Source of the DNA: Nitrospirota bacterium
GTDB taxonomy: Bacteria; JACPQY01
Length of the DNA stretch: 20,000 bases
Direction of reading: 5' to 3'
Assembly: GCA_016180645.1 (NCBI GenBank)
Contig: JACPAV010000025.1
Span: 47,884-67,883 of the forward strand
Positions within the stretch are counted from its first letter, which is position 1, and each line of letters begins with the position of its first letter. Both the position numbers and the translations under genes were made by a program. The notes below the pieces were generated by a model. The model saw only the letters and a list, made by a program, of their open reading frames with translations. It searched no databases and was not told the origin of the DNA. Positions 1,849 through 19,900 of the stretch are shown in pieces.

Positions 1849-1886
1849 TATGCTACACATTTACCCTATGGTAAATATTATGCATA
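1849..1886. promoter_or_regulatory. Dyad operator TATGC-N5-ATTTACC-N4-GGTAAAT-N5-GCATA at the start of the TA operon
   Basis: Symmetric two-part inverted repeat in an AT-rich patch just downstream of TTGACG (1831-1836). Confidence 0.7.
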
Positions 1887-3517
1887 CAGGCCGGCGCACT
1901 GGAAGGATTCCGGTCGCAGATCTTGAACAAGAGGCGGTAGGGGGGATCCTCCAGCTCATCTCGCATATCGGAGTCAAGGTCAGGCAGGACAGGAGGCCGA
2001 GGCGGGAGCGGGGGGGTGGGGGCATCGGGTGGGACCGCGTGCTGAGGGCCCGGCACGGGGGGGAGGAGGCCCGGATCGGGATTCGGATCGTACGAAGAGG
2101 CGAGCCGAGTGCTGTCCTCGAGGCGATCGGCGTGATTTCGCTCATCAGAAAGAGGCCGGGCGAGCATGCGACGCGGCCCATCATCTTCGCCCCGTCTCTG
2201 ACGGAGCGGGCCATGGAGCTCTGCGACGAAGCGGATGTGGGCTACCTGGATCGCCTCGGAAACGTCGCGGTGCGATTTCTGAACGTGGTTGTGCAGAAGG
2301 AAAAGGAAAAAAGCATGCCCTGGCCCAGACGCGAGCTTCGGCATCTCTTCGCGCCCAAGACATCGAGGGCCATTCGGGTCCTGCTTACAGCCCCGGCCCG
2401 AGCGTGGACCCAGAAGGGGCTGGCGGACGAAGCGGACGTCAACATTGCCCTTGTCAACCGCTTGGTGAGACGGCTCAAGGTCGAGGGACTCGTCGCCCTA
2501 TATCACAAGCGATGGATCGTGACGGACCCGAAGACGCTCCTGGGAAGGTGGCTTCAGGCGTACGCCTTCGGGGACGCACATCTGAGCCTGCCCTGTTTCG
2601 ATGTGCAAGGGGCGCAGGGACTCTACCGAGGTCTGCGGGATCTCGCCGAGAAGCGCGGGCTGCGGTGGGCCGTGACGCTCTACTCGGGCGCGAACATGCG
2701 GTCCCCCTTTACGACGGCGCAGGTCACGCATGTCTACATCGGGGGGGCGGACGTGCATGAAACGGCGGAGGCGCTCGAGTTGAGGCCGGTCGGGAAGGGT
2801 GCAAACGTGGTCCTCATCGAGCCGGGGGATGAGGGTGTGTTCCACGGCGCACGGGAGATTGAGGGCGTTCCCGTTGTGTCTGATCTTCAACTCTACCTGG
2901 ACCTGAAGACATCCGGAGGGCGGGCTGCGGAGCAGGCCGAGCACTTGGTGGAGAAGGGACTCGTGGCGGCCGCGAAAGAGTGCGCCGCCCCCCCCTTGGG
3001 GATCGTCCTGGGAGGCATCCCTTCGGATGTGGGTGGAGAGGATGACGGCGCGCCCGGCGATCGGGCGGCGCAGGCGGTTTTGCTTGTCGAAAGGGAGATC
3101 GAGAAAACCATGACTCGGGGCAAGTCGCGGGGGAGTAGGAGAGCCGAATGGCTGCGCGCGACCTTGTGGCTCCTCCGCCTCCAAGCGGCGATGGAGGAGG
3201 ACCGGAAGCATTTCCTCGAGTCGGCGGAGCGGATCGTGTCAACCGATACGGCGACCGACGCCTTGGAGGCGCGGGGACTCTTGGATGGAGCGCTGGTGTC
3301 GTATGGGCGGGCGCTGCGCAACGGCCTGAAGGCGAGGTGGGAGACGGATCCTCATGATCGTAAGCACTATCGGGCGGACTTTCAGCGGCAGCTGCGCCTT
3401 CTGTTGAACGTGGAGAGTCAGCCGACGTGGCTGAGGCCGTGGATCGAGCGTCTCAAGACATGGTCCGAAGACGAATCCCGCGGAGTGGGGGAGAAGGGCG
3501 ATGGCGGAGCCGCGTAG
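1868..3517 (+). CDS. AbiEi-like type IV TA antitoxin/regulator with ~180-aa C-terminal extension (start uncertain: 1850/1868/1880)
   Basis: Motifs CDEADVGYLDRLGNV, LFAPKTSRAIRVLL, HTH TQKGLADEADVNIALVNRLVRRL, GANVVLIEP, VVSDLQLYLDL...GGRAAEQAEHL; overlaps a downstream nucleotidyltransferase. Confidence 0.8.
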   Translation: MVNIMHTGRRTGRIPVADLEQEAVGGILQLISHIGVKVRQDRRPRRERGGGGIGWDRVLRARHGGEEARIGIRIVRRGEPSAVLEAIGVISLIRKRPGEHATRPIIFAPSLTERAMELCDEADVGYLDRLGNVAVRFLNVVVQKEKEKSMPWPRRELRHLFAPKTSRAIRVLLTAPARAWTQKGLADEADVNIALVNRLVRRLKVEGLVALYHKRWIVTDPKTLLGRWLQAYAFGDAHLSLPCFDVQGAQGLYRGLRDLAEKRGLRWAVTLYSGANMRSPFTTAQVTHVYIGGADVHETAEALELRPVGKGANVVLIEPGDEGVFHGAREIEGVPVVSDLQLYLDLKTSGGRAAEQAEHLVEKGLVAAAKECAAPPLGIVLGGIPSDVGGEDDGAPGDRAAQAVLLVEREIEKTMTRGKSRGSRRAEWLRATLWLLRLQAAMEEDRKHFLESAERIVSTDTATDALEARGLLDGALVSYGRALRNGLKARWETDPHDRKHYRADFQRQLRLLLNVESQPTWLRPWIERLKTWSEDESRGVGEKGDGGAA

Positions 3518-4358
3518 CCCGGAAATAACGCGGGCCTTGGAGGAGGTTCTCGTCGAGATCCTGACGCACCTGGGCCGGTACGCCGAGCACATGGTGGTGG
3601 TTGGGGGGATGGGTACTTACCTGCTCATCCGGGACCACGTGGGGCCGGAGGGATACATCGGGACGCGGGACATCGATCTCTTGGTGAATCCCTCGGAGAT
3701 CCCGGGGACGGTGTATGCGCGGATCAGCGAGATCCTGTCGGACCACGGTTTCCAGCAGAAGAAGGACCTGCTGGGAAAGCCAATCCCAAGCATTTTCGTG
3801 CGGACCAAACTCCTTCCCGGAGAGGGCGTTTGGGACGAGGAAATCGATTTCCTGGCTCCCGAGTACGGGGGGTCGGGCCGGAAACGGCGGCATCAGCGCG
3901 TGCAGGATCTTCTGGCCCGCAAGGTTCGGGGTGGAGACTTGGCGTTGGAGGGGGCGATGACGGTCCCTGTGCGGGGCGTGCTTCCCTCGGGTGCGCCGCA
4001 GACAAGATCCATCCGTGTCGCTTCGCCTGCATCGCTTCTCGTCATGAAGGCGGTCACGTTCGGCGATCGGAAGGAGGACAAGGACGCGTATGACATTGTC
4101 ATGCTTCTGCGCCATGCTCCGGGAGGGCTGGATTCGGCGGTGGAGTACTTCACGGTTCATGGCTCACACGGTTTGGTGAGGGAGGCCGTGCGAGTACTGG
4201 AGGAGGCGTTTGGAGGATCGGATTCGATCGGCCCGGCGGGGGCGGCATCCAGCATGGGGGCCACCGGCCCCGAGGTCAGAGCCCAGGATAGGCAGTTGGC
4301 GTTCGAGGTGGTGCAGAGGTTTCTCAAGCGTATTTGGAGGGGCGGAGGAGCGCCATGA
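3501..4358 (+). CDS. AbiEii-like nucleotidyltransferase toxin
   Basis: VVVGG...GTRDIDL pol-beta NTase motif and MKAVTFGDRKEDKDAYDI; coupled to the AbiEi-like gene. Confidence 0.8.
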   Translation: MAEPRSPEITRALEEVLVEILTHLGRYAEHMVVVGGMGTYLLIRDHVGPEGYIGTRDIDLLVNPSEIPGTVYARISEILSDHGFQQKKDLLGKPIPSIFVRTKLLPGEGVWDEEIDFLAPEYGGSGRKRRHQRVQDLLARKVRGGDLALEGAMTVPVRGVLPSGAPQTRSIRVASPASLLVMKAVTFGDRKEDKDAYDIVMLLRHAPGGLDSAVEYFTVHGSHGLVREAVRVLEEAFGGSDSIGPAGAASSMGATGPEVRAQDRQLAFEVVQRFLKRIWRGGGAP

Positions 4359-8128: not shown

Positions 8129-8208
8129 CCCACCACCTCCCACAGGCCGCAGAGCGGCCTCGGATCTAGCGGCTCGCTTGGCGAGCCGGTGGGAGGTGGT
8201 GGGATCAT
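8124..8208. repeat. T-shaped palindromic element copy 2 (inverted relative to copy 1)
   Basis: 17-bp perfect IR 8127-8143/8189-8205 enclosing hairpins AGGCCGC-AGA-GCGGCCT and CGGCTCGC-TTG-GCGAGCCG; ATGAT at both ends on the minus strand. Confidence 0.85.
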
Positions 8209-9752
8209 AGGCCGGCGCGGCTCAGAAGCCTGCGCACGGCGTCCACCCCGACTTCCAAATCCGACTTGGACAGAATCCGGTCGATCGTGTGGGGCCTAAT
8301 CTCTGTCTCCACCTTGGCGCGAGCCCGATCGGTAAGCTCTTGCGAAACGGCGAGGTCCTTCGCGGCCGTTCCGATCTTGTCCGCCTGTTCCTCCGTGAGC
8401 GGCACGGCCCCCCAGCGCCTGAGCTGCTCCCTGTAGAGGCCAAGGTAGTAGAACCTTTCTTCAAGAACGTTTTCCATCCTTGAGACCAGAGCGTCATCCA
8501 GCGAACCCGGCTTGCGGCTCCCTTCGAGAATGATGCTGAAGAACTCCCGGCTGTCGGAGGCGAGGCGCTTCAAGTTGGATGCGACGGGGTCGAGCATTTC
8601 GAGCGGCTGGAACTGGGGATCTCCTTCGGGCGGCTTCCAGCGGCCGGAACCGGCGCGTGATGGCGTGGGGCCCGCGGCCTTGTTGCGGATCTCCTGTCCG
8701 CCTTGGCGGAACGCGGGTAGGCTCGCCGATTTGGTGGCGGTCCGGCAGCAGAACTTGTATTTCTTGCCGCTCCCGCAAGGGCAGGGGGCGTAGACATCGC
8801 CTGGAGGCATGCCGACCCCAGGCGTCACGTCCCGCCCTTTCAGGAGGTCTTCGGGAGCGAAACCGAGATTGTCCAGGTCGAGGTTCCCGTCGGCAAAATC
8901 ACCCGCAAGGACGGAACTGAGCGACCCCAGCATGGACTCGCTCTCCTTGCGCATCTGGTCCAGACGGTCTGTACCCACCCGGTGGAGGAGATCGTTGAGC
9001 GGCCCCCGGTTGCCGTTTTCCGCCTCGCGGCACGCCGCGTTGAACTCGTTCGAGATCTCGCCCCACTTTTCGCGCCACGCGGCCATGAGACCATCGCGAT
9101 CCCGCACGCGCTCCTCGTGTGAGGAGGGACTCGCGACGGTTTCGGCAGGAGGCGTGAACGAGAGATCGAACCGCGCCCGTTCTTTCGCGTCGCCCAGGAG
9201 CGACGTCAGGAACCGGCTGCGGGCCGATCGGCCGACCTCCCGGAAGCCCTCGAAGGCCTTGGGAGAAAGATCCCGAACGTGTGCGAAGACGCGCGAGACC
9301 TTAAGGATGCCCTCCTGGACCGACGCGAGAACGCGGGCCATGTCGTCCCACGATTCTCGAATGAGGTCTTCATTGATTTCGGGCATCGTGGCCTCGGCGA
9401 AACCGAGCCGCCTGCGGATCGCGGGTGGGGCCAGGATCGGGTAGACCCCCATGCGCTTCATGACGAGTTTCAGGCGGAAAGAGAGCATTTCCGTCAGGCC
9501 GAAGGCGAGGTCAACCCACTCGGTGAACTTTCCGACTGATTTTTCGCGCTCCAACCGGAACCACTCGGAAGCATGCGGATACTCGTCGCGCGTGACGACC
9601 TTCTCCCCGGCAGGATCGGAACGCTTGCCGACCTCGGTGATGGCGAGACCGCGTGTCCGCGCGTCATCGAGGAGTTTGTCCAGGTGGGCGAAGACGAGAG
9701 GGAGATCCTCCTCGGTCACGACCAAGTTGCGCGCGGGACACTTTTCAGCCAC
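8205..9752 (-). CDS. SEC-C motif protein (~515 aa)
   Basis: PCPCGSGKKYKFCC; GGAGG 6 nt before GTG at 9752, which removes the overlap with the divergent gene. Confidence 0.8.
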   Translation of the reverse strand: MAEKCPARNLVVTEEDLPLVFAHLDKLLDDARTRGLAITEVGKRSDPAGEKVVTRDEYPHASEWFRLEREKSVGKFTEWVDLAFGLTEMLSFRLKLVMKRMGVYPILAPPAIRRRLGFAEATMPEINEDLIRESWDDMARVLASVQEGILKVSRVFAHVRDLSPKAFEGFREVGRSARSRFLTSLLGDAKERARFDLSFTPPAETVASPSSHEERVRDRDGLMAAWREKWGEISNEFNAACREAENGNRGPLNDLLHRVGTDRLDQMRKESESMLGSLSSVLAGDFADGNLDLDNLGFAPEDLLKGRDVTPGVGMPPGDVYAPCPCGSGKKYKFCCRTATKSASLPAFRQGGQEIRNKAAGPTPSRAGSGRWKPPEGDPQFQPLEMLDPVASNLKRLASDSREFFSIILEGSRKPGSLDDALVSRMENVLEERFYYLGLYREQLRRWGAVPLTEEQADKIGTAAKDLAVSQELTDRARAKVETEIRPHTIDRILSKSDLEVGVDAVRRLLSRAGL

Positions 9753-9858
9753 CGGGATCCTCCATTGCGTGCCGTACCACGGCACATGCCGGGCCGTCAA
9801 GGTGAAGCACCGAAATCCGAGCGTTGAGTGCCTGGCCCCGGAAGGACATAATCCGGGC

Positions 9859-11223
9859 GTGGATTGGAGAATCATGCTGACGGTCTTTCTGCTGCTTGCA
9901 CCCGCCGGTGTCGGTTGCGCGGGTGACGGTGAGACATGCGGTTCGTCGGCGTCCTCCGTGACGCCGTTCCGCGCGGGAAAAGACTTCATCTACGACGCCT
10001 CGGAGAGGGTCACAATTCCGAGAGGTGTGAACGTCCCCGGCAACTACGACTATCCGTTCAAGTACACATCGGCGGATCTGGACCTGATCGCCTCTTTCGG
10101 CTTCAACTTCATCCGGCTCGGGATTTCCTGGAAGCACATGGAGCCGAAGGAAGGGACCTATGACATGGCGCACGTCGATCAATACCGAAACTTCATCCGT
10201 GAGGCGGGTGAGCGCGGCATCTATGCCATGATCGAGGTCCACCAAGTCAACTGGTGCATGAAAGGGGGCGACGTCCCCGAATGGATGTGCGAGGAAATAC
10301 CCCCATTGTGGGACGACCTCGGGACGATCCTTAAAGAGGCTGACCGCTTCTGGAAAAGCGAGGAACTTCGGGCCAAACTCATTCGCTTCTGGATATTTCT
10401 GGCTCGGAACTTCAACGATCTTGACTCCCTTTTCGGCTATGACATCCTCAACGAGCCCACATCGAGTTACGGCATCCTTTTCGGGGAATTCGAGAAGTGT
10501 TGCCTCTTCCCCTTCTACCGGAACGTCATTTCAGCCATAAGAGAGGTCGACTCGCGCAGACCCATTGCTCTGGAGCCGAACGTCCTTTCCACCGCGCTTC
10601 GCGACTACACCGAGCCCTTCCCCTACGACAACCTGCTGTTCTCGCCGCATCCCTACTTTCCCCACACCTACGGGGGGCAAGGGCTCATCATCTTGGCGAA
10701 AGAAACGCCTGTAGACATCAGGGAAAAGTATGGGAGGTACGTCCAAGAGGCGAAAGTCATGGGCGTTCCTGTCCTTGTGGGCGAATACGGGGGTCCGGAA
10801 GAAGACAAGCATGACTTTGTGCCCGCGTGGTTGGAAGAAAGCCATCGAATGCAGGACCAGTATCTGTTGGGAGCCGCCTACTGGGTGTATAACCCCGACG
10901 ACACGATGTGGTCCATCGTAGACAGGAACAGAACCCCGAAGCCCTACTATCTTGAGCGGCTCCGGCGACCCTACCCGAGATTCACCGCCGGCATCCCGCT
11001 CTCGCTTTCCTTCGACCGTTCGGAGGGGCACTTTTCCTACTCGTACGCGCCGTCCGGCGGCTCGTGCGGCACGACGGAGATATTCCTGCCGCAGGCCATG
11101 ATGGAAACGGGCCACCTGCGCGTGGCGGGGGCGCGAAAATGGTCGTACGATCCGAGCCGGGAGGTGCTCGCTGTCGGGAGCGCGAGGGCGAAAGAAGTCC
11201 ATGTCGAAATCGCGTCCGAGTAG
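9859..11223 (+). CDS. GH5 endoglycoceramidase-like glycoside hydrolase, predicted lipoprotein (start 9859 or 9874)
   Basis: RGVNV, GFNFIRLGISWKHMEP, acid/base GYDILNEP, nucleophile VLVGEYG, RPYPRFTAGIP before a C-terminal beta domain; signal LLLAPAGVGC. Confidence 0.9.
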   Translation: MDWRIMLTVFLLLAPAGVGCAGDGETCGSSASSVTPFRAGKDFIYDASERVTIPRGVNVPGNYDYPFKYTSADLDLIASFGFNFIRLGISWKHMEPKEGTYDMAHVDQYRNFIREAGERGIYAMIEVHQVNWCMKGGDVPEWMCEEIPPLWDDLGTILKEADRFWKSEELRAKLIRFWIFLARNFNDLDSLFGYDILNEPTSSYGILFGEFEKCCLFPFYRNVISAIREVDSRRPIALEPNVLSTALRDYTEPFPYDNLLFSPHPYFPHTYGGQGLIILAKETPVDIREKYGRYVQEAKVMGVPVLVGEYGGPEEDKHDFVPAWLEESHRMQDQYLLGAAYWVYNPDDTMWSIVDRNRTPKPYYLERLRRPYPRFTAGIPLSLSFDRSEGHFSYSYAPSGGSCGTTEIFLPQAMMETGHLRVAGARKWSYDPSREVLAVGSARAKEVHVEIASE

Positions 11224-12439: not shown

Positions 12440-12897
12440 TGGCGTCGCTTGCGGTCTTGCTCTGAGCCGGAAACCTCAGCCGATCCACCGCCGCGGCCAA
12501 TTCCTCTGTCTTTCGCTCCCTCGCGTACTCGGCAAGCTGCCCAACGGTCTCGTCGGGGAGCGGCAGCGCGGCACCGAGCATCCGGACCAGACACCGCTTG
12601 CAGACCCTTGTGGAAGGGATCCGCATCCCTTCCTTTTCGTTCTGGTAGTAGGTTTCGCCCTCCCGGATCTTGGCGCGGCAGTCGCAACGGTGCTCTTTGC
12701 GCGCCTGGACGGGACGGAATTCCCAGAAAGCGCGGCCGATGCGGTTGAACAGCGTAAGGGCATTCTGAAAACTCCCCTCCGAACTGAAGAAGGAATGCCA
12801 TGACCGGTCGAGTCTGGCGCGCGTCACCTGCTGCGCACTGCGGGCAGTGGTCTGGCCATTCGACGAGGGCAGCCGGCGTGGTTTTCGGCTCAGGCGT
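12375..12897 (-). pseudogene. Probable frameshifted Cys-rich zinc-finger gene
   Basis: C-terminal frame ARKEHRCDCRAKIREGETYY...VCKRC; N-terminal CPQC segment in another frame, starting at ACG (12895-12897) overlapping the upstream stop. Confidence 0.45.
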
Positions 12898-14344
12898 GCC
12901 GCTCTTCCACCTTCTCCACGAAGGCGAGAACTCTCGCGGCGAGTTCCCGGCCCCTGTGGACAGCGGCCTCGAACGCCCGGAGTTCCTCTCCACGCCCCTC
13001 GACGGCCGGATCCCCTCTCCACGCGTCCAGAAGGCGGCAGTACGCCAGGAGGGACTGGTTGTTCTGGGACCACCCCGAACGAATCCGACCGCAGACAACC
13101 GGATGGAGCGACCCTCTCAGGCGCGCGGCCTCCTCGATGATCCCGGCGAAGAAAACGGCGTTATCGAGCCAAGTCCCGACTTTTTCGCGAAGCTTCGGGA
13201 ACTCATCGGAGGAGGGAACAAGCGGATTGCCGTACCGGTCGGTCGGAGGCAGATCGAGCAGCTCGGGCCCGCTCCCGTCCAAACCGGGCTCGCCGAAAAC
13301 CTGCCTGCGAATCCGGTTCACCGCGCCGATGATTTCCTTCAGGAAAGGCGACGGCGCAAAATCGGTCTCCTTGAGGTCTCCCGTCTGGAGGGCTTCGGCG
13401 ACAAGAGACATAATCTGAAGCTGGAGCGCTTCGTGCTCCCGGAGCATCTCCTCGCGTTCATGTTCGGGTAAGGTATGAGCCACGCGGCGCGCCGCGGACT
13501 CGCCTCCCGAGACCTGAGCCGCCTGAACTTGCTTGAAGACCGATCCCCATCTCTCCTCGAAGACCTGGCGCCGCGCCATGAAGCTCACCCACCGAGGGTC
13601 ACCCCAGTCAACCTGTCCGCGTCGCTCCGGACGGGGGCCGACGTAGTTGCCTTCCTTGTCGCGCCAGAGGGGCCAGTGAGGAACGAGTCGACGGTCCCGG
13701 AACTCTTTGTCCCTGATATAGCGCATGTAGAAAACGCTGCCGATCGCGCGACCAAGCTCCCGATACCCCTTGAACAGATGGGGGAACTCCACCGGCAGGC
13801 GTTCGAACGCCTTCGAGGCCGGCAGCCGATAGGTGAGAACGGAGGCGGCGATCCGACACATCTCGTCCCAATGCTCCTCGAAGTGCTTCTTCTTCACTAC
13901 GCCTCCGAAACATTTCTGCGCCTTGGGCGGCAGCTTCTGGCCGGGCATGGAGTAGAGCTTGAAGGTGCTCCCCGGGGAGAGGAAGAGATGGAGCTCGAAG
14001 CCCATCAGGTGCATGAAACCGAACGCGCAGTCGATCACTTCGCTCCTCGGTATCCCGGGCGGCCATCCCCGGACGGCGTCGCCCCCGCCCAGTTCGTAGT
14101 CCACGGGCATGGCCGCGACGATTTCCTCTTCCTCGTTCCGAGGGAGCTTCGCGAGCGTCGTCCCCTGGCTTTCCGCGCGGTTCTTGAACCCGTCAATCAA
14201 TCTGAAGGCGATAGGGATCTCGGACTCGTGCGCGACGAAGATTTTCGGGATGGAAGTGAGCTTCTCCTCCAACGATCCTCCGACTCCGCTTTCGTAGCAC
14301 TTGACCCGCCGCGCGTCAACGGCATCCACCCACGGGTGTTGCAC
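12890..14344 (-). CDS. 484-aa protein with an internal degenerate Tn3-transposase-like segment
   Basis: AFGFMHLMGFEL...KLY...EEHWDEMCRIAASV...PAS...YRELGRAIGSVFYMRYIRDKEFR resembles Tn3 TnpA (FAL.HLLGF...LY...I..HWDD.LR.AASI...AS...LRELGRIERTLF.L.Y..D..LR). Confidence 0.65.
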   Translation of the reverse strand: MQHPWVDAVDARRVKCYESGVGGSLEEKLTSIPKIFVAHESEIPIAFRLIDGFKNRAESQGTTLAKLPRNEEEEIVAAMPVDYELGGGDAVRGWPPGIPRSEVIDCAFGFMHLMGFELHLFLSPGSTFKLYSMPGQKLPPKAQKCFGGVVKKKHFEEHWDEMCRIAASVLTYRLPASKAFERLPVEFPHLFKGYRELGRAIGSVFYMRYIRDKEFRDRRLVPHWPLWRDKEGNYVGPRPERRGQVDWGDPRWVSFMARRQVFEERWGSVFKQVQAAQVSGGESAARRVAHTLPEHEREEMLREHEALQLQIMSLVAEALQTGDLKETDFAPSPFLKEIIGAVNRIRRQVFGEPGLDGSGPELLDLPPTDRYGNPLVPSSDEFPKLREKVGTWLDNAVFFAGIIEEAARLRGSLHPVVCGRIRSGWSQNNQSLLAYCRLLDAWRGDPAVEGRGEELRAFEAAVHRGRELAARVLAFVEKVEERHA

Positions 14345-14462: not shown

Positions 14463-14536
14463 CGGTCCCGGCCGGACTTGAACCGGCTTTCTCCGCCTTG
14501 ACGGGGCGGCGTCTCGACTGCTTCGACTTCGGGACC
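14463..14536 (-). tRNA. tRNA-Asp(GTC), C33, A8
   Basis: Cloverleaf; CCGCC-CCGTCAA-GGCGG. Confidence 0.9.
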
Positions 14537-14538
14537 CT

Positions 14539-14578
14539 CGCTCCTGCCCGGATTGGAACCGAGGTCTACGGCAGGAGC
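14539..14578 (-). pseudogene. 40-nt tRNA remnant (acceptor stem + T arm only)
   Basis: GCTCCTG-ccgtagac-CTCGG-TTCCAAT-CCGGG-CAGGAGC-G. Confidence 0.7.
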
Positions 14579-14588
14579 CTGGAAACTG

Positions 14589-14660
14589 TGGCCCGTGCGA
14601 GAGTCGCACTCGCTTCACCGGATTGAAAGTCCAGTATCCTAACTCGTAGACGAACGGGCC
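14589..14660 (-). tRNA. tRNA-Glu(TTC)
   Basis: CTGGA-CTTTCAA-TCCGG; T loop TGCGACT. Confidence 0.9.
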
Positions 14661-14661
14661 G

Positions 14662-14734
14662 TGGCTCGAAAAGGATTCGCACCTTTGCCTGCGCCTTATG
14701 AGAGCGCCGTGCCTGCTGATTACACCATCGAGCC
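14662..14734 (-). tRNA. tRNA-CAT, elongator Met-like
   Basis: GCGCT-CTCATAA-GGCGC; paired 1-72; Ile2 not excluded. Confidence 0.85.
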
Positions 14735-14736
14735 TC

Positions 14737-14811
14737 TGGTAGCGGGTCCAGGATTTGCACCTGGGATCTCGTGGTTATGAGCCACGCGAGATACTACTTC
14801 TCCAACCCGCG
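14737..14811 (-). tRNA. tRNA-fMet-like (CAT), CCA encoded
   Basis: 5' CGCGGG with C1xU72 mismatch; CGTGG-CTCATAA-CCACG. Confidence 0.85.
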
Positions 14812-14901
14812 ATCAGGAGCTCGACTATTGAAAGTAGTGTGGTAGGTTATCGCTCGCGCATTCGCGGGCGATCTTCGTAGAAGGATTCCGCGCCCATCCG
14901 G

Positions 14902-14972
14902 ACACGGCTGCGGGAGTTGCACCCGCCTGATGTGGGTTGCAGCCACACGCCTACCTGCTCGGCCAAGCCGTG
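14902..14972 (-). tRNA. tRNA-Cys(GCA)
   Basis: TGTGG-CTGCAAC-CCACA; U73. Confidence 0.9.
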
Positions 14973-15036
14973 CGCGGATAAACGCGGACTACAGTCCGTC
15001 TCGAAAGAAATCGTTACAGCCATCGTGTGATCTCCG

Positions 15037-15109
15037 CTGGGGAGGTGGGTCTCGATCCCACAACTTCCTGATTAACAGTCAGGCCCGTTGCCGATTGCGG
15101 TACTCCCCA
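15037..15109 (-). tRNA. tRNA-Asn(GTT)
   Basis: CCTGA-CTGTTAA-TCAGG; T loop ATCGAGA. Confidence 0.9.
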
Positions 15110-15201
15110 GCGCAGACCACGCGCCAGAGAGTTCCTATTGCCCGGACCCAGTTTCTTCATGCCCATCATGGTACTCCTTTCGTCATTCTCTCGTCAAACT
15201 T

Positions 15202-15273
15202 CAGGGAAGCAGGGACTCGAACCCTGGTCTGCGCTTTTGGAGAGCGCATGATTGGCCGCCATCTTCCTCCCCT
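15202..15273 (-). tRNA. tRNA-Trp(CCA)
   Basis: GCGCT-CTCCAAA-AGCGC; weak D arm, G8. Confidence 0.85.
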
Positions 15274-15275
15274 GT

Positions 15276-15347
15276 TCGGCGCGGGAAGGTACGATCTTCC
15301 GTCTGTCGGTTATAAGCCGACTGCTCTCCCTATTGAGCTACACGCCG
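15276..15347 (-). tRNA. tRNA-Ile(TAT)
   Basis: GTCGG-CTTATAA-CCGAC; A73. Confidence 0.9.
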
Positions 15348-15354
15348 TAACCTT

Positions 15355-15440
15355 CGGAAGGTGAGGGAATTGAACCCCCGCCGGACGTGCCGGGATCGGT
15401 TAGCAACCGATTGCGACAAACCGACATTCGCCTACCTTCC
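15355..15440 (-). tRNA. tRNA-Ser(GCT)
   Basis: ATCGG-TTGCTAA-CCGAT; long variable arm. Confidence 0.9.
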
Positions 15441-15444
15441 AAGC

Positions 15445-15519
15445 TGGAGCCTCCGGCCAGTATTGATCTGGCTTCTCCGCGTTACGAGTGCGGTGCATCA
15501 CCTTTTATGCTTCAGAGGC
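15445..15519 (-). tRNA. tRNA-Thr(CGT), CCA encoded
   Basis: CCGCA-CTCGTAA-CGCGG. Confidence 0.85.
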
Positions 15520-15522
15520 ACG

Positions 15523-15594
15523 AGCCGCCGGAGGGCGTCGATCCCTCTTTTCCTGGGTACAGGCCAGGCGTCTTTCCATCTCGACCTCAGCGGC
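15523..15594 (-). tRNA. tRNA-Thr(TGT), C33
   Basis: CCTGG-CCTGTAC-CCAGG. Confidence 0.85.
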
Positions 15595-15601
15595 AGAACT
15601 T

Positions 15602-15672
15602 TGCGGGAGCGGGGACTTGATCCCCGGCTTCAGGCTTGGAAGGCCCGCTTGCTTCCACTACAACACTCCCGC
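15602..15672 (-). tRNA. tRNA-Gly(TCC)
   Basis: CGGGC-CTTCCAA-GCCTG; acceptor GCGGGAG/CTCCCGC. Confidence 0.9.
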
Positions 15673-15679
15673 TCATGTT

Positions 15680-15866
15680 TGCGCGGGGCCGGCCTCGATC
15701 CGGCATGGACCTGTGTGTAGGACAGGCGGCTCTCCATTCACCCCGCACCAATCCCGAAACAAGCGTGTTGATGTTGAAAACACGAAAGGCGAAGCCGCCT
15801 TCGGCTACAAATCAACACCTGTGCAGACGCAAACACAGGATTGGTGCGGGGTTCGCCTACCCGCGC
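15680..15866 (-). tRNA. tRNA-Val(TAC) interrupted in the D loop
   Basis: 5' piece GCGCGGG-TA-GGCGA (15866-15853) pairs with 3' CCCGCGC-A; 3' piece has CCTGT-CCTACAC-ACAGG; removing 115 nt yields a 72-nt cloverleaf. Confidence 0.85.
15740..15852. mobile_element. 113-nt MITE-like or intron-like insertion in the tRNA-Val D loop
   Basis: Perfect 15-bp TIR ACCCCGCACCAATCC (15740-15754)/GGATTGGTGCGGGGT (15838-15852); TC direct repeat on both flanks; internal stem GTGTTGAT/ATCAACAC. Confidence 0.75.
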
Positions 15867-15874
15867 TTCAAATT

Positions 15875-15946
15875 TGCGGAGTGCGGGCTTCGATCCCCAC
15901 CCTTCCGCATACCAAACGGACGCACATCCAACCGTGCTCTAGCGGC
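15875..15946 (-). pseudogene. Chimeric tRNA: Thr(GGT) 5' part with Gly-type 3' end
   Basis: 5' GCCGCTA cannot pair with 3' ACTCCGC-A; anticodon arm TCCGT-TTGGTAT-GCGGA intact. Confidence 0.75.
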
Positions 15947-15953
15947 GAAACTT

Positions 15954-16040
15954 CGGAGAGGGTGGGATTCGGACCCACGTCCGCCGGTCGGCGGATTCGG
16001 TTTTCAGGACCGATGCCTTCAACCACTCGGCCACCTCTCC
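15954..16040 (-). tRNA. tRNA-Ser(TGA), C33, C55
   Basis: TCGGT-CCTGAAA-ACCGA; long variable arm. Confidence 0.9.
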
Positions 16041-16045
16041 CAACT

Positions 16046-16137
16046 TGGCGGTAGCGGGAGGGGTCGAACCTCCAGTCCACGTCTTCACGGGACGCCGCCT
16101 TTCCACGACGGCGGTTTCACCATTCACCCACGCTACC
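16046..16137 (-). tRNA. tRNA-Ser(GGA), CCA encoded
   Basis: CCGTC-GTGGAAA-GGCGG; long variable arm. Confidence 0.9.
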
Positions 16138-16144
16138 AAACGGA

Positions 16145-16229
16145 CGGAGGGTGCTGGATTCGGACCAGCGGACCCTTTCGGGCCTCCCGCTTTCGAGGCG
16201 GGTGGATTCAACCGCTCTCCCAACCCTCC
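16145..16229 (-). tRNA. tRNA-Ser(CGA), C55
   Basis: CCCGC-CTCGAAA-GCGGG. Confidence 0.9.
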
Positions 16230-16234
16230 AAATT

Positions 16235-16318
16235 TGCGGCTGGCTGGAGTTGCACCAGCATGGGTGTTACCCCACAAGCCTCTCAAGCCTGCTCGTCTGC
16301 TTGTTCCGACACAGCCGC
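16235..16318 (-). tRNA. tRNA-Leu(GAG)
   Basis: CAGGC-TTGAGAG-GCTTG. Confidence 0.9.
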
Positions 16319-16324
16319 GTATTC

Positions 16325-16408
16325 TGGCCCCGCCAGGATTCGCACCTGGACGGCCTTCTCGGCCGGCGGGTCTTAAATCCGCCGCGTCTGCTGTTTCGCC
16401 ACGGGGCC
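16325..16408 (-). tRNA. tRNA-Leu(TAA)
   Basis: GCGGA-TTTAAGA-CCCGC. Confidence 0.9.
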
Positions 16409-16416
16409 TCCGTCTC

Positions 16417-16430
16417 ATTGTCAAAGAACA
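16417..16430 (-). promoter_or_regulatory. boxA-like antitermination element TGTTCTTTGACAAT
   Basis: Resembles rrn boxA (GYTCTTTRAMAA) in a tRNA spacer. Confidence 0.55.
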
Positions 16431-16438
16431 ACCACATT

Positions 16439-16522
16439 TGCGCCGGGAAGGACTTGCACCTTCACGCCCTTTCGGACCACGGCTTCTGAGACCGTGACGG
16501 CTGCTGTTTACGTCACCGGCGC
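16439..16522 (-). tRNA. tRNA-Leu(CAG)
   Basis: ACGGT-CTCAGAA-GCCGT. Confidence 0.9.
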
Positions 16523-16528
16523 GTCATT

Positions 16529-16609
16529 TACCGGAGGTGGGACTTGGACCCACACGCCTTTCGGCACGAGCTTCTAAGGCTCGCGCGTCTGCCGTTCCGC
16601 CACTCCGGT
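16529..16609 (-). tRNA. tRNA-Leu(TAG), C55
   Basis: CGAGC-CTTAGAA-GCTCG. Confidence 0.9.
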
Positions 16610-16617
16610 ATCAAACT

Positions 16618-16699
16618 TGCCCCTGGAAGGATTTGCACCTTCACGCCTTTCGACAGCGGATCTTGAGGCCGCCTCGTCTGCTGATTCCGACACAGGGGC
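16618..16699 (-). tRNA. tRNA-Leu(CAA)
   Basis: GCGGC-CTCAAGA-TCCGC. Confidence 0.9.
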
Positions 16700-16984
16700 G
16701 CTTCGATAGTCCCTGAAATCATTGGCGTCCGCTTCCCGGAATTTCCGGAGCAGCGAATCGTACCGCCTCACCATGTCCATGATCTCGTCGTTCACAGCGT
16801 CTTTCCCTTCACTTTCAATTTCAAATTCCTCTTCATGAGCCGGTGAATCGTTCCCCCGGCTACTCCCGCCCGTGGAGAGGCGACCCACCCACCATGCTTT
16901 GCCGCCCGCTCCAGGGCGGCTTCTCTATTCCGTATCCACATGTTTCCCGGCTTTCCCGTCATCTCAACCTCGTCAAAACAAAAA

Positions 16985-17130
16985 GACAGACCAAGATGGC
17001 AATTGTCAGGGCCACGGCTGCTTTCCTTTCGGGTTTCTTTGGATCAGCTCGTCGTAACCCTTAGAGGGTTGACGTACCGAGCGATCCTGTGGACAGCGTG
17101 GCGCCTAATATCAAGCACCACACCAATAGA
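16985..17130 (-). ncRNA. Rod-shaped RNA with central bubble, 6S-like candidate
   Basis: Nested helices GCCACG/CGTGGC, GCTG/CAGC, GGATC/GATCC, GCTCG/CGAGC, AACCCT/AGGGTT; asymmetric bubble with GAAA mini-hairpin; U-rich tail. Confidence 0.5.
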
Positions 17131-17147
17131 CTGAACAAGAACCGCAC

Positions 17148-17220
17148 TGGCCACCCCTGGGATCGAACCAAGCTCTCCCGCTTTTCAGGCGGGCGCAGCG
17201 ACCACGTTTGCTTGGTGGCC
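17148..17220 (-). tRNA. tRNA-Phe(GAA)
   Basis: CCCGC-CTGAAAA-GCGGG. Confidence 0.9.
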
Positions 17221-17273
17221 AGTTCGATTCCCGTAAAGAAGGGCTCAGTGTTCTTGTTCATGCTGATCTTTTC

Positions 17274-17302
17274 TTTGTACTCGCCTCCTGCGTTTTTGTC
17301 AA
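17274..17302 (-). promoter_or_regulatory. Promoter for the left tRNA block, TTGACA-N17-TACAAA
   Basis: tgtcaa 17297-17302 and tttgta 17274-17279 on the plus strand, ~55 nt upstream of tRNA-Phe. Confidence 0.65.
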
Positions 17303-17307
17303 GATCG

Positions 17308-17511
17308 CATGGCGAACACACCGGAGACTTGGGGACCGACGTGGCCGCGCTGAGCCAGGGCCTCGATTTCAACGGAAACAAACGCGGCATAGCCCTTGAG
17401 GTCGTTCGGATGAGCGACGTCGAGGCGGCCTACATCCTGTTCAGTCGGTCCGACGCGAGGACAACGGGTTGCTCAGGGCTGGTCGGTTCGGGCAACATCA
17501 TCGACCTTTGA
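17308..17511 (+). pseudogene. Internal fragment paralogous to the 11201-12085 lipoprotein
   Basis: GDLGTDVAALSQGLDFNG...DVEAAYILFSRSDARTTGCSGLVGSGNII versus GDLGTHVAALTQGTDFDG...DVEAAYILFDRSDAGATGCSGVAGSGNII. Confidence 0.85.
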
Positions 17512-17649
17512 CCCCGAAACCCCGACACGGTGGCCACCACTCACATACATGCAAACTTACAACATCTATCTTCCCACTGCCCCTATTATCGAATTTTTCA
17601 CGAAAACGCGGAAAAGGCCAATACATAGCTTGGGAGCGTGAAAGATCAA

Positions 17650-18450
17650 TCAGGCGTGAGCGGTGGCCTCGGTCCAGCCGAGAAGGTAGGTGATCCGCGG
17701 CCGGCCGATCCCTGGGGAGAGCCGCCCGATCTCGAACCGGTAACCGTTGCCGTCGGTCAGCCCCTCGGTCAGACGCTCCAGTTGCCTAGGGGTAAAGACT
17801 CTCATGCACGATACAACCCCGTCCCACATGGTAAAGAACGGCAGCACCGGAACCAGATAGGTCAAGAGCAGGCGCTGCAATTTAGGCGGCCGGATCAGCG
17901 GGGCGGACAGAAGGACGCCTATCGGGACAAACCCAATCGCCGGCAGCGCCATGCGCTGTTCAACGACCTCGAAAATGCCGATCGGAGCGCCGGACTCGAC
18001 CGCATCGCGCAGGATCGCCCGCGCCACCGGCGACGGCATGTGGTGAAATGCATTGAAGATCGTTCGCACTCCCTTAAGGTCGTGCGGGACCGCCGCCGCG
18101 TCGACCGGGGTTGAAATGAATTCGATTCTTCCCCCCGACTCCTGCGCCGCCCGGTGGAAAGCCCCGGTGTTGGGGTACTTGTCGGTCAACGTGATCCTGA
18201 CCGGATATCCCGCTTTGCGAAAAAGACTTTCCATTCTTACTTGCGGCCCGCTTCCGCCCGACCCCATGTCGATGATCCGTTCCGTGTCGTGCGCGCGCAA
18301 CCACTCGACCATCTTCGGTACGATCGGATCGAACGCGTGCGACACCTCGTTTAGGTAGCGCAAGCAGTCGGTCATGTAGTCGCGCCACTGCACCGGAAAC
18401 CACTGGAAATCCTCAAACTCGAACAGATAGTCGCGCAACATGGGCGGCAT
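17650..18450 (-). CDS. Class I SAM-dependent methyltransferase-like protein
   Basis: Motif I IIDMGSGGSGP, ITLTDKYP, VDAAAVP, FNAFHHM. Confidence 0.8.
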   Translation of the reverse strand: MPPMLRDYLFEFEDFQWFPVQWRDYMTDCLRYLNEVSHAFDPIVPKMVEWLRAHDTERIIDMGSGGSGPQVRMESLFRKAGYPVRITLTDKYPNTGAFHRAAQESGGRIEFISTPVDAAAVPHDLKGVRTIFNAFHHMPSPVARAILRDAVESGAPIGIFEVVEQRMALPAIGFVPIGVLLSAPLIRPPKLQRLLLTYLVPVLPFFTMWDGVVSCMRVFTPRQLERLTEGLTDGNGYRFEIGRLSPGIGRPRITYLLGWTEATAHA

Positions 18451-18616
18451 TCGTTAGCCCACCCCTTTCCGCTCTGCTGCCGCAACAACCCTCCCCGCCC
18501 CAGCCAACAGGCCCAGCAGCCCGAAGGTGGTCCATGAGTTTGGGAGGGAGTCGAGTCTCATCGGCCCATCCTATCACTTCCCTGCGCCCCCCTTCCCACA
18601 GGGCCTCCCCTTTCTC

Positions 18617-18895
18617 TCACCGTTCTTCTCTTTTTCCTCCCCCCCCGCCCCGCGCGCGCGGGGAAAAAGAGGGAGCGGTGGGGGGAACCAGACCCTTGTG
18701 GGAATGCTGGGCCGACAGCACGCTCAGGAAAAGGCCCTCGATCCGTTGGTGCGCCTGGCGCCGGGCCTCGCGGACGAGATCCTCCAGGACCGTCTCGCCC
18801 GGCTCGACGTTCATCTTACAATCGAAGGAGACCGATCCGTGTGACGACCCTCCCGCCCATGGCGGGAGACTGTCACGGGGATAGAGGCGTGTCAA
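18617..18895 (-). CDS. Possible small hypothetical protein
   Basis: Amphipathic core VLEDLVREARRQAHQRIEGLFLSVL; same strand as neighbours; no clear SD. Confidence 0.3.
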   Translation of the reverse strand: MTRLYPRDSLPPWAGGSSHGSVSFDCKMNVEPGETVLEDLVREARRQAHQRIEGLFLSVLSAQHSHKGLVPPTAPSFSPRARGGGGGKREER

Positions 18896-18921
18896 CGCAC
18901 GAGAGGGTGCGTGGCGAATCG

Positions 18922-18996
18922 TGCCCTTGGAGGGATTTGAACCCTCTGCCTTCCGGTTCGGAACCGGAGATGCAAATCCAGTTACACCTCAAGGGC
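18922..18996 (-). tRNA. tRNA-Arg(CCG)
   Basis: TCCGG-TTCCGAA-CCGGA. Confidence 0.9.
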
Positions 18997-19002
18997 CAAA
19001 CT

Positions 19003-19073
19003 TGGGACCGGAGCGAGTCGGACGCTCGTATCCGCGATGTCACCACGGCGCTCTGCCGTTGAGCTACGGTCCC
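19003..19073 (-). tRNA. tRNA-Val(GAC), C55
   Basis: CCGTG-GTGACAT-CGCGG. Confidence 0.85.
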
Positions 19074-19074
19074 G

Positions 19075-19145
19075 TGGAGCCGCAGGGAATCGCACCCTGA
19101 TTTCATCCATGCCGAGGATGTGTCCTCCTATTGAACGACGGTCCC
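19075..19145 (-). tRNA. tRNA-Ala(GGC), C33
   Basis: CATCC-TCGGCAT-GGATG; G3:U70. Confidence 0.85.
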
Positions 19146-19151
19146 AAACTT

Positions 19152-19226
19152 TGCCCCAGGTAGGACTCGAACCTACACGTTGCCCCGCTCGTAACGGGGT
19201 GGCCTCTCCAATTGACCGACTGGGGC
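19152..19226 (-). tRNA. tRNA-Arg(ACG)
   Basis: CCCCG-TTACGAG-CGGGG. Confidence 0.9.
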
Positions 19227-19236
19227 TCGAACTGGG

Positions 19237-19310
19237 GGTGACTGACCGGACTTGAACCGGCTACTGTGAGGGCCACAACCTCACGCCTATCCTCTTCGGC
19301 TTCAGCCACC
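19237..19310 (-). tRNA. tRNA-His(GTG)
   Basis: TGAGG-TTGTGGC-CCTCA; G-1:C73. Confidence 0.9.
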
Positions 19311-19317
19311 ATAGATT

Positions 19318-19389
19318 TCTGGGCGCTGCGAAGTCGAACCCAGTCCACGGCGTTCCCGACACCGGATGCAGCCTCTACACCACGCCCAG
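19318..19389 (-). tRNA. tRNA-Pro(GGG), C33, irregular T stem
   Basis: CGGTG-TCGGGAA-CGCCG. Confidence 0.8.
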
Positions 19390-19396
19390 TCCAACT

Positions 19397-19467
19397 TCTG
19401 GGAGCTTGGGATTGAACCAAGTCCACATCGTTCCGAACGATGGAGGCGACCTCTACCCCACTCCCAG
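19397..19467 (-). tRNA. tRNA-Pro(CGG)
   Basis: CATCG-TTCGGAA-CGATG. Confidence 0.9.
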
Positions 19468-19473
19468 TCGAAT

Positions 19474-19544
19474 TCAGGGTGCCTGGAATTGAACCAGGTC
19501 CACATCGTTCCAGGCGATGGATGCGACCACTACACCACACCCTG
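19474..19544 (-). tRNA. tRNA-Pro(TGG), C33
   Basis: CATCG-CCTGGAA-CGATG. Confidence 0.9.
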
Positions 19545-19546
19545 GG

Positions 19547-19619
19547 TGCGCCCGGTAGGACTTGCACCTACACTCTCAGCCTTATCAAGACTGCGCTTCA
19601 CTGTTTAAGCTACAGGCGC
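19547..19619 (-). tRNA. tRNA-Ile(GAT)
   Basis: CAGTC-TTGATAA-GGCTG. Confidence 0.9.
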
Positions 19620-19625
19620 GAAATG

Positions 19626-19698
19626 TGGGGCCGGTGGGCTTCGATCCCACGTCTTCCGCTTAAAAGGCGGATCGTGCTCCCGACTCACCTACGGCCCC
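19626..19698 (-). tRNA. tRNA-Lys(TTT)
   Basis: TCCGC-CTTTTAA-GCGGA. Confidence 0.9.
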
Positions 19699-19747
19699 GT
19701 TCTTTTGTCGTCCTCTCCTTTCATCGGACGCTCCTTTCAAACATGGG

Positions 19748-19818
19748 TGGAGCCACGGAGATTTGAACTCCGATCTCAGCGGTGCGGACGCCGCATCCTC
19801 CCATTGGACGATGGCCCC
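19748..19818 (-). tRNA. tRNA-Ala(CGC), C33
   Basis: CGGCG-TCCGCAC-CGCTG; G3:U70. Confidence 0.85.
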
Positions 19819-19827
19819 AATACATTT

Positions 19828-19900
19828 TGGGTCCGGTGGGACTTGCACCCACAGCTTCCGGTTTAAGAGACCGGCACTCTGTCTGTTGAGTTACGGACCC
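19828..19900 (-). tRNA. tRNA-Lys(CTT)
   Basis: CCGGT-CTCTTAA-ACCGG. Confidence 0.9.

Follow-up and report, generated by a model that had tools for sequence, protein, structure and literature searches.

Related systems

The closest described counterparts of the element considered here are the MITEs of the Correia (Neisseria), ERIC and RUP type. In the accessible part of PMC10969869, these are short, non-coding sequences with terminal inverted repeats and a target-site duplication, present in many, mostly intergenic, copies, and their transcripts form a long hairpin which RNase III can cut; all these traits have a parallel in the present element, the hairpin at the level of its predicted fold. 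The differences are that no match in print was found for its ends and its GCGAAGC motif, that it has no known parent insertion sequence, and that the family, whose ends hardly vary, is found in phyla far removed from each other.

The second point of comparison is the long tRNA array. The L-array has been defined as at least 20 tRNA genes at a density of at least 2 per kb (PMC4758250, the portion available), and the available portion of PMC8421152 describes such arrays as horizontally spread, usually silent, supernumerary sets, with pseudogenes making up 3 of the 26 genes of the Anabaena array. The array of the present host, with 26-30 genes and duplicated in the genome, likewise resembles the known ones in its supernumerary, non-canonical and dead members. 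It differs in showing a cause of gene death, a transposon insertion; in the main texts on tRNA arrays, PMC8421152 included, the string "transpos" occurs 0 times in the portions available.

Archaeal introns at non-canonical positions, processed through a bulge-helix-bulge (BHB), and split tRNAs resemble this locus in having an insert located around the D loop and looped out of the cloverleaf. However, the insert described here has no BHB geometry, no EndA gene was found in its host, and the inserted sequence is present in the DNA in many copies, with target duplications. Finally, the intervening sequences of bacterial 23S rRNA are removed by RNase III without re-ligation, and the fragmented rRNA is still functional inside the ribosome. 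The analogy would be that a gene for a stable RNA contains an inserted hairpin, with stem cleavage as its likely fate, whereas the pieces of a tRNA severed at its D loop would lack a scaffold comparable to the ribosome.

Set against these systems, the locus is most probably the result of a MITE copy having broken a spare tRNA-Val(UAC) gene in a long accessory tRNA array; it would be a transposon hit in a dispensable gene, and no novel intron of bacterial tRNAs.

Structure of the split tRNA-Val(UAC) gene

The gene lies on the minus strand at 15866..15680 of the window (the whole stretch of 20,000 nucleotides analysed, part of contig C29 of a host assembly of 4.7 Mb, 65 contigs and 61% G+C), and its D loop is split by an insert of 111-113 nt. 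The 5' piece (15853..15866, minus strand), formed by the acceptor 5' strand, positions 8-9 and the D-stem 5' strand, aligns with the first 14 nt of an uninterrupted paralogue on contig C21. The 3' piece (15680..15739, minus strand) comprises the rest of the D arm, the anticodon arm with C before TAC, the variable loop, the T arm, the acceptor 3' strand and the discriminator A; its inner boundary, at 15739, is the point beyond which contigs of metagenome runs X5 and X8 cease to match.

Between both pieces lies the MITE core of 111 nt (15741..15851), which reads CCCCGCACCAATCC ... GGATTGGTGCGGGG from 15851 to 15741. Its terminal inverted repeats are perfect over 14 bp (15838-15851 and 15741-15754), or over 15 bp if they are taken to include the A/T adjoining them at 15852 and 15740, giving the 113-nt span 15852..15740. 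The central GCGAAGC motif occupies 15789..15795 on the plus strand, opposite the tRNA. A GA (or GAA) direct repeat is found on both sides of the insert and, read as a target-site duplication on the tRNA strand, corresponds to CGAA upstream (15852..15855, minus strand, overlapping the 5' piece) and TGAA downstream (15737..15740, minus strand), where the C21 paralogue has a single TGAA. One of the 4 positions differs between these two copies, which is a point against inactivation by a MITE.

The split gene is called neither by ARAGORN (26 genes in the window) nor by Rfam (27 tRNA matches), and neither program reports a tRNA between 15673 and 15953. Once the insert and one GA are deleted in silico, ARAGORN calls a 72-nt tRNA-Val(tac). 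Genes interrupted in this way are missed by tRNA finders, so that an array can seem to be devoid of an isoacceptor. The base preceding the anticodon of the restored tRNA is C, as in the C21 copy, whereas a further tRNA-Val gene, on contig C23, has T; the split gene therefore deviates from the canonical elongator tRNA-Val, with its U33, although its cloverleaf is otherwise called.

For the 187-nt stretch as a whole, the predicted minimum-energy fold has the insert as a closed hairpin, with all four tRNA arms (acceptor, D with 3 bp, anticodon and T) formed around it; its z is -5.6, with 0 of 200 shuffles as stable, and the insert alone folds with z = -7.4. The inner helices of this fold are GTGTTGAT/ATCAACAC and GAAGGCG/CGCCTT, with CCTGTG/CACAGG as an alternative. 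The initial annotation, made from the letters of this DNA, had proposed a tRNA-Val gene with a D-loop insert whose removal restores a 72-nt tRNA, and an insert that closes upon itself so that the cloverleaf can form around it. The piece coordinates, the inverted repeats, the GA/GAA repeat, the restored tRNA and the named inner helices were all found again, and the predicted fold agrees with the closed domain; the base before the anticodon, by contrast, had to be corrected from U to C.

The same annotation had considered misassembly, which would have joined a repeat to a tRNA fragment. Contigs of runs X1 and X4 do break near the repeat boundaries, but a 686-nt contig of X1, produced by a different assembler, crosses both junctions with 0 differences over 15686-16371, although X1 may be the source sample and hence not independent DNA. 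Moreover, the flanks restore a gene identical to the paralogue at 69 of 72 positions, and an assembly artefact can be regarded as practically negligible.

Array context, paralogue and empty sites

The split gene forms part of a tRNA array at 14463..19900 (minus strand), about 5.4 kb long, which reaches the contig end and yields 27 Rfam matches and 26 ARAGORN genes, the latter between 14588 and 19900. A second array, with 30 genes in 3.9 kb, is located at C21:21779-25649. Both (26 and 30 genes) are L-arrays by gene number and density, and together they hold 56 of the 104 tRNA genes called by ARAGORN in the host genome (30 on C21 and 26 on C29). The two arrays are syntenic, only about 73% identical, and both situated at contig ends. 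C precedes the anticodon in 14 of the 56 array tRNAs, as against 2 of the 48 elsewhere in the genome. Among the unusual members are a TTA-anticodon tRNA called "Stop", Asn(ATT) and Ile(TAT).

The C21 array contains the uninterrupted 72-nt tRNA-Val(tac) which supplies the 69/72 comparison with the joined C29 gene, and the pair constitutes an empty and a filled site: a single TGAA on C21 against CGAA-insert-TGAA on C29. The C23 gene is a third tRNA-Val(tac), canonical and with U33. The split gene is therefore redundant, being backed by both the C21 copy and the canonical C23 gene.

Further sites were obtained by comparing contigs of four metagenome runs over 15200-16400. Besides the filled form, X1 has another contig of comparable depth, whose match covers 15686-15742 with a single difference and breaks off there, as would be expected of the C21 paralogue. 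The contigs of X5 and X8, which come from related groundwater organisms and each from another study, match at about 94-98% up to 15739. While the X5 contig diverges there, the X8 contig resumes at 15960, with 193 letters between both points as compared with 220 here. Since 113 of these 220 letters are insert, X8 would come from a relative which has no insert and about 86 letters more, a surplus that fits two extra tRNAs present at this place on C21 (Gly-GCC and Thr-GGT). Judging by these lengths, the X5 and X8 relatives probably carry the intact gene.

These sites also bear on the idea, raised in the initial annotation, of a switch at the DNA level, in which precise excision by a transposase would reactivate the gene in part of the population. 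The intact ends, the near-intact flanking repeats and the existence of insert-free relatives would suit it. However, the three runs with this DNA show only the filled form (at least 99% identity) and the paralogue, and no joint between 15739 and 15853 appears among the contigs listed, which is weak evidence in that contigs drop rare variants. Furthermore, no transposase partner was found and the gene is redundant, all of which makes such a switch exceedingly doubtful.

An additional observation concerns the 87 nt between tRNA-Ser(TGA) and the split gene (15867-15953, minus strand), with no call by ARAGORN or Rfam. This stretch includes a Thr(GGT)-like anticodon arm, but its T arm and acceptor end mismatch its own 5' end. 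It looks like a deletion remnant, to judge from the paralogue, which has two tRNAs (Thr-GGT and Gly-GCC) at that place, and from the surplus of about 86 letters in the contig of a relative. The locus is decaying in two ways, through the insert and through this remnant.

The element in the host genome

Copies of the insert had been sought elsewhere by a whole-genome search for left and right ends facing each other, with at most 2 mismatches per 14-nt end. Sixteen such pairs are present in the host genome, the split-tRNA copy being one of them, spread over 10 contigs and separated by 75-299 nt (most by 107-114). The exact 9-nt core of the ends is not enriched by itself (54 and 48 copies against approximately 67 expected per strand), but exact cores pair within 400 nt 10 times, as compared with approximately 0.2 chance pairs estimated from 54 and 48 cores in 4.7 Mb. 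With a profile of oriented copies, nhmmer recovers 12 full copies in the host genome. The split-tRNA copy scores E = 8e-19 against a family profile whose alignment included that very copy and seven others from the same genome.

Direct repeats of at least 3 bp flank 13 of the 16 host copies (4 with 3 bp and 9 with 4 bp), and repeats of 4-5 bp flank 9 of 24 non-redundant external copies; when one flank is moved by 10 nt as a control, direct repeats are found in 1 of 46. The target duplications measure 3-5 bp and are mostly T-N-N-A words (TTGA, TCAA, TGAA, TTCA and TGGA). The element is thus short and non-coding, shares its terminal inverted repeats with copies at unrelated loci, has target-site duplications and can be compared with an empty site (in the C21 paralogue and, judging by where their match ends, in the X5 and X8 contigs), as is characteristic of MITEs. 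A point against inactivation by such an element is that the split-tRNA copy has no close interior match in the host genome, the best reaching 52%.

The initial annotation had hesitated between an intron, a MITE which inactivated the gene and an element aimed at tRNA genes. At 15 of the 16 host copies, tRNA genes are absent up to a distance of 3 kb. In a removal test, 46 copies (16 from the host and 30 external) were each deleted in five registers, and a tRNA was restored across the junction at only one of them, that in tRNA-Val(UAC); both results argue against targeting of tRNAs. Conversely, the multiple copies at non-tRNA sites, the target-site duplications, the uninterrupted paralogue and the relatives speak for a MITE that inactivated the gene. 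One external copy (L053 9117-9229), on a metagenome contig of 41% G+C, is intergenic within a tRNA cluster, 19 nt behind a tRNA-Leu(GAG).

Some host copies deserve separate mention. Contig C20 (119 kb), which carries TraH- and TraF-like genes and is probably a conjugative element, has five clear copies (at 19552, 37265, 38991, 71512 and 109243) and a 1.6-kb pair with diverged ends. Two C20 copies bracket a 1.6-kb gene, and those at 71512 and 109243 read almost as reverse complements of each other, one of them with an extra piece of 32 nt. Longer variants with the same ends, of about 210 and 300 nt, also exist (G001 L047 227-434, L048 243-453 and pairs on C33, C37 and C74; G000 C53:40555-40763 and 63135-63433), some of which are flanked by TTCA repeats.

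Family definition, interior and spread

The family can be recognised by its 14-bp ends (CCCCGCACC[A/T]ATCC and its complement), its central GCGAAGC and its length of about 101-114 nt; 36 of 37 distinct copies fall within this range, and the remaining one measures 145 nt. Over 13 oriented and aligned copies, column identity is 92% in the ends and 44% in the interior. Apart from the helix at the termini, the consensus fold has only a very small hairpin at its centre, and interiors compared with shuffled ones have a mean z of -0.77, only 6 of 37 lying below -2; the split-tRNA copy, at -2.95, is among the more structured. A family of structured RNAs was rejected for these reasons. The insert was also considered as a terminator, given the terminator-like hairpins inside it on the tRNA strand, and this candidate was discarded too: the 3-kb region contains 6 such sites, as compared with 3.5 +/- 1.8 in shuffles. 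No relevant Rfam family matches the insert at E<=10 over 15660-15960.

The motif GCGNAGC (nearly always GCGAAGC) was counted in 20 of 37 distinct copies, whereas shuffling of the interiors leads one to expect 0.67; it lies 42-71 nt from one end, mostly at 48-50. In the part of PMC13037366 available, GCGAAGC is described as an extraordinarily stable "mini-hairpin DNA" motif, which points to a role at the level of DNA.

The same end pair, 70-100 nt apart, is present at 7 loci of 4 other assemblies (Acidiferrobacterales, Patescibacteria group, Candidatus Moranbacteria and a Nitrospirae-labelled one) and at 23 metagenome loci, 19 of them of at most 47% G+C. The search of viral contigs gave 0 matches, and phage records showed similarity to single tRNAs only. 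At some external loci (L035, L070 and L056/L059/L067) the flanks extend the inverted repeat (TTCA ... TGAA, CAG ... CTG) and there is no direct repeat, a situation that could result from recombination between copies or from a true end that is longer. In the literature, the end strings retrieve only papers on human mitochondrial DNA, and the family is apparently undescribed, as judged from searchable texts.

Intron or insertion

The proposal of a new intron type can be examined at the level of DNA. In the predicted fold, the two insert junctions face one another where an unbroken helix of 17 bp ends, an arrangement which leaves no bulge-helix-bulge, that is, no pair of 3-nt bulges with a 4-bp helix between them. 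The tRNA-splicing endonuclease domain (PF01974) has 0 matches in the host genome, estimated to be 97% complete, while the same search matches four archaeal control genomes. A group I or group II intron core is longer than 113 nt, and neither intron type is among the Rfam matches at E<=10 over 15660-15960. Together with an interior that conserves neither sequence nor fold and the lack of an Rfam family, these results give the new intron type no support. A search for genes encoding RtcB or a splicing endonuclease, suggested in the initial annotation, was positive for the former and negative for the latter, and the presence of RtcB says little, as it is also found in 10 of 14 control genomes. The RtcB match (G000:C5:25473-26777) has one TGA inside the matched frame.

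A more elaborate possibility is that the insert, a MITE by origin, is removed or tolerated in the RNA: a nuclease (RNase III or another) would cut the terminal helix, and the halves would be joined by RtcB or would work as a two-piece tRNA. Processing of this kind is physically conceivable on the predicted fold, with its four tRNA arms around a closed insert, and the host has genes for both RtcB and RNase III. In addition, Watson-Crick pairs make up the whole of the acceptor and D stems of the split gene, including the places at which the paralogue has G-U, which indicates exons still free of decay, and an Anabaena array of the same kind is co-regulated with rtcB according to the available portion of PMC8421152. 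On the other hand, there is neither a bulge-helix-bulge at the junctions nor a splicing endonuclease domain in a 97%-complete genome, RtcB is common, no interior fold is conserved, and 45 of the 46 copies lie outside tRNAs. Moreover, the gene is redundant twice over, so that nothing selects for its rescue. Altogether, removal or tolerance in the RNA is improbable. Its specific version, in which RNase III cuts the 15-17 bp helix and the tRNA works either joined by RtcB or as two pieces held together by the acceptor and D stems, is very improbable; if true, it would make of a MITE a makeshift bacterial tRNA intron.

The preferred reading, inactivation of a spare gene by a MITE, would involve the following steps. 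The tRNA-Val gene would already have been redundant when a transposase supplied in trans, probably of the DDE type, inserted the element at a GAA/TGAA of the segment that codes for the D loop, with duplication of 3-4 bp. Owing to that redundancy the hit would have been tolerated, and the split gene would now be dead. If the array is transcribed, the terminal helix of 15-17 bp would be a likely substrate of RNase III, and the precursor would be cut in two instead of being spliced. According to the accessible part of PMC10969869, the inverted repeats of Correia-element transcripts are sites of RNase III cleavage; by analogy, and given the RNase III gene of the host, such cleavage would be the likeliest fate of the transcript.

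Search for a parent transposon

An autonomous element with matching ends was found neither in the host genome (end pairs up to 5 kb) nor in the 4 other assemblies or the 30 external loci, which counts against inactivation by a MITE, although assemblies often drop copies of insertion sequences. All host end pairs up to 5 kb turned out to be weak matches or to belong to two distinct small copies, and the 30 external loci offer no long end pairs. A 1.8-kb end pair in the Moranbacteria assembly was tried as a parent element and proved to be two separate small copies. In a relative of the same family, six solitary ends were inspected: three beside housekeeping genes (serA-like, pyrG and IF-2B-like), two in copies of approximately 210 bp and one about 500 bp from a contig end. 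A protein-family search around three of these solitary ends revealed no transposase.

Among the known families of insertion sequences, IS1380 has CC ends and duplicates 4-5 bp. It was rejected as the parent, being absent from the host genome, and the one IS1380-type transposase detected in another assembly has unrelated ends. The ORFs between two C20 copies were likewise discarded as transposases, as they are TraH/TraF-like instead. A family with nearly invariant, GC-rich 14-bp ends, GCGAAGC and a free interior provides a useful handle for finding the mobilising enzyme.

Two other features of the window may be recorded. The ORFs at 8205-9989 and 12890-14344 (both on the minus strand) are paralogous, 24% identical and of 594 and 484 aa; in each, about 115 residues match positions 744-859 of the 954 of a Tn3-family transposase model, and one carries a SEC-C motif. 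The two ORFs do not amount to complete transposases, nor are they obvious fragments, and no link with the element is drawn. Finally, an AbiEi-like/AbiEii-like pair (type IV toxin-antitoxin/abortive infection), recognised by weak Pfam matches, occupies 1850-4358 on the plus strand.
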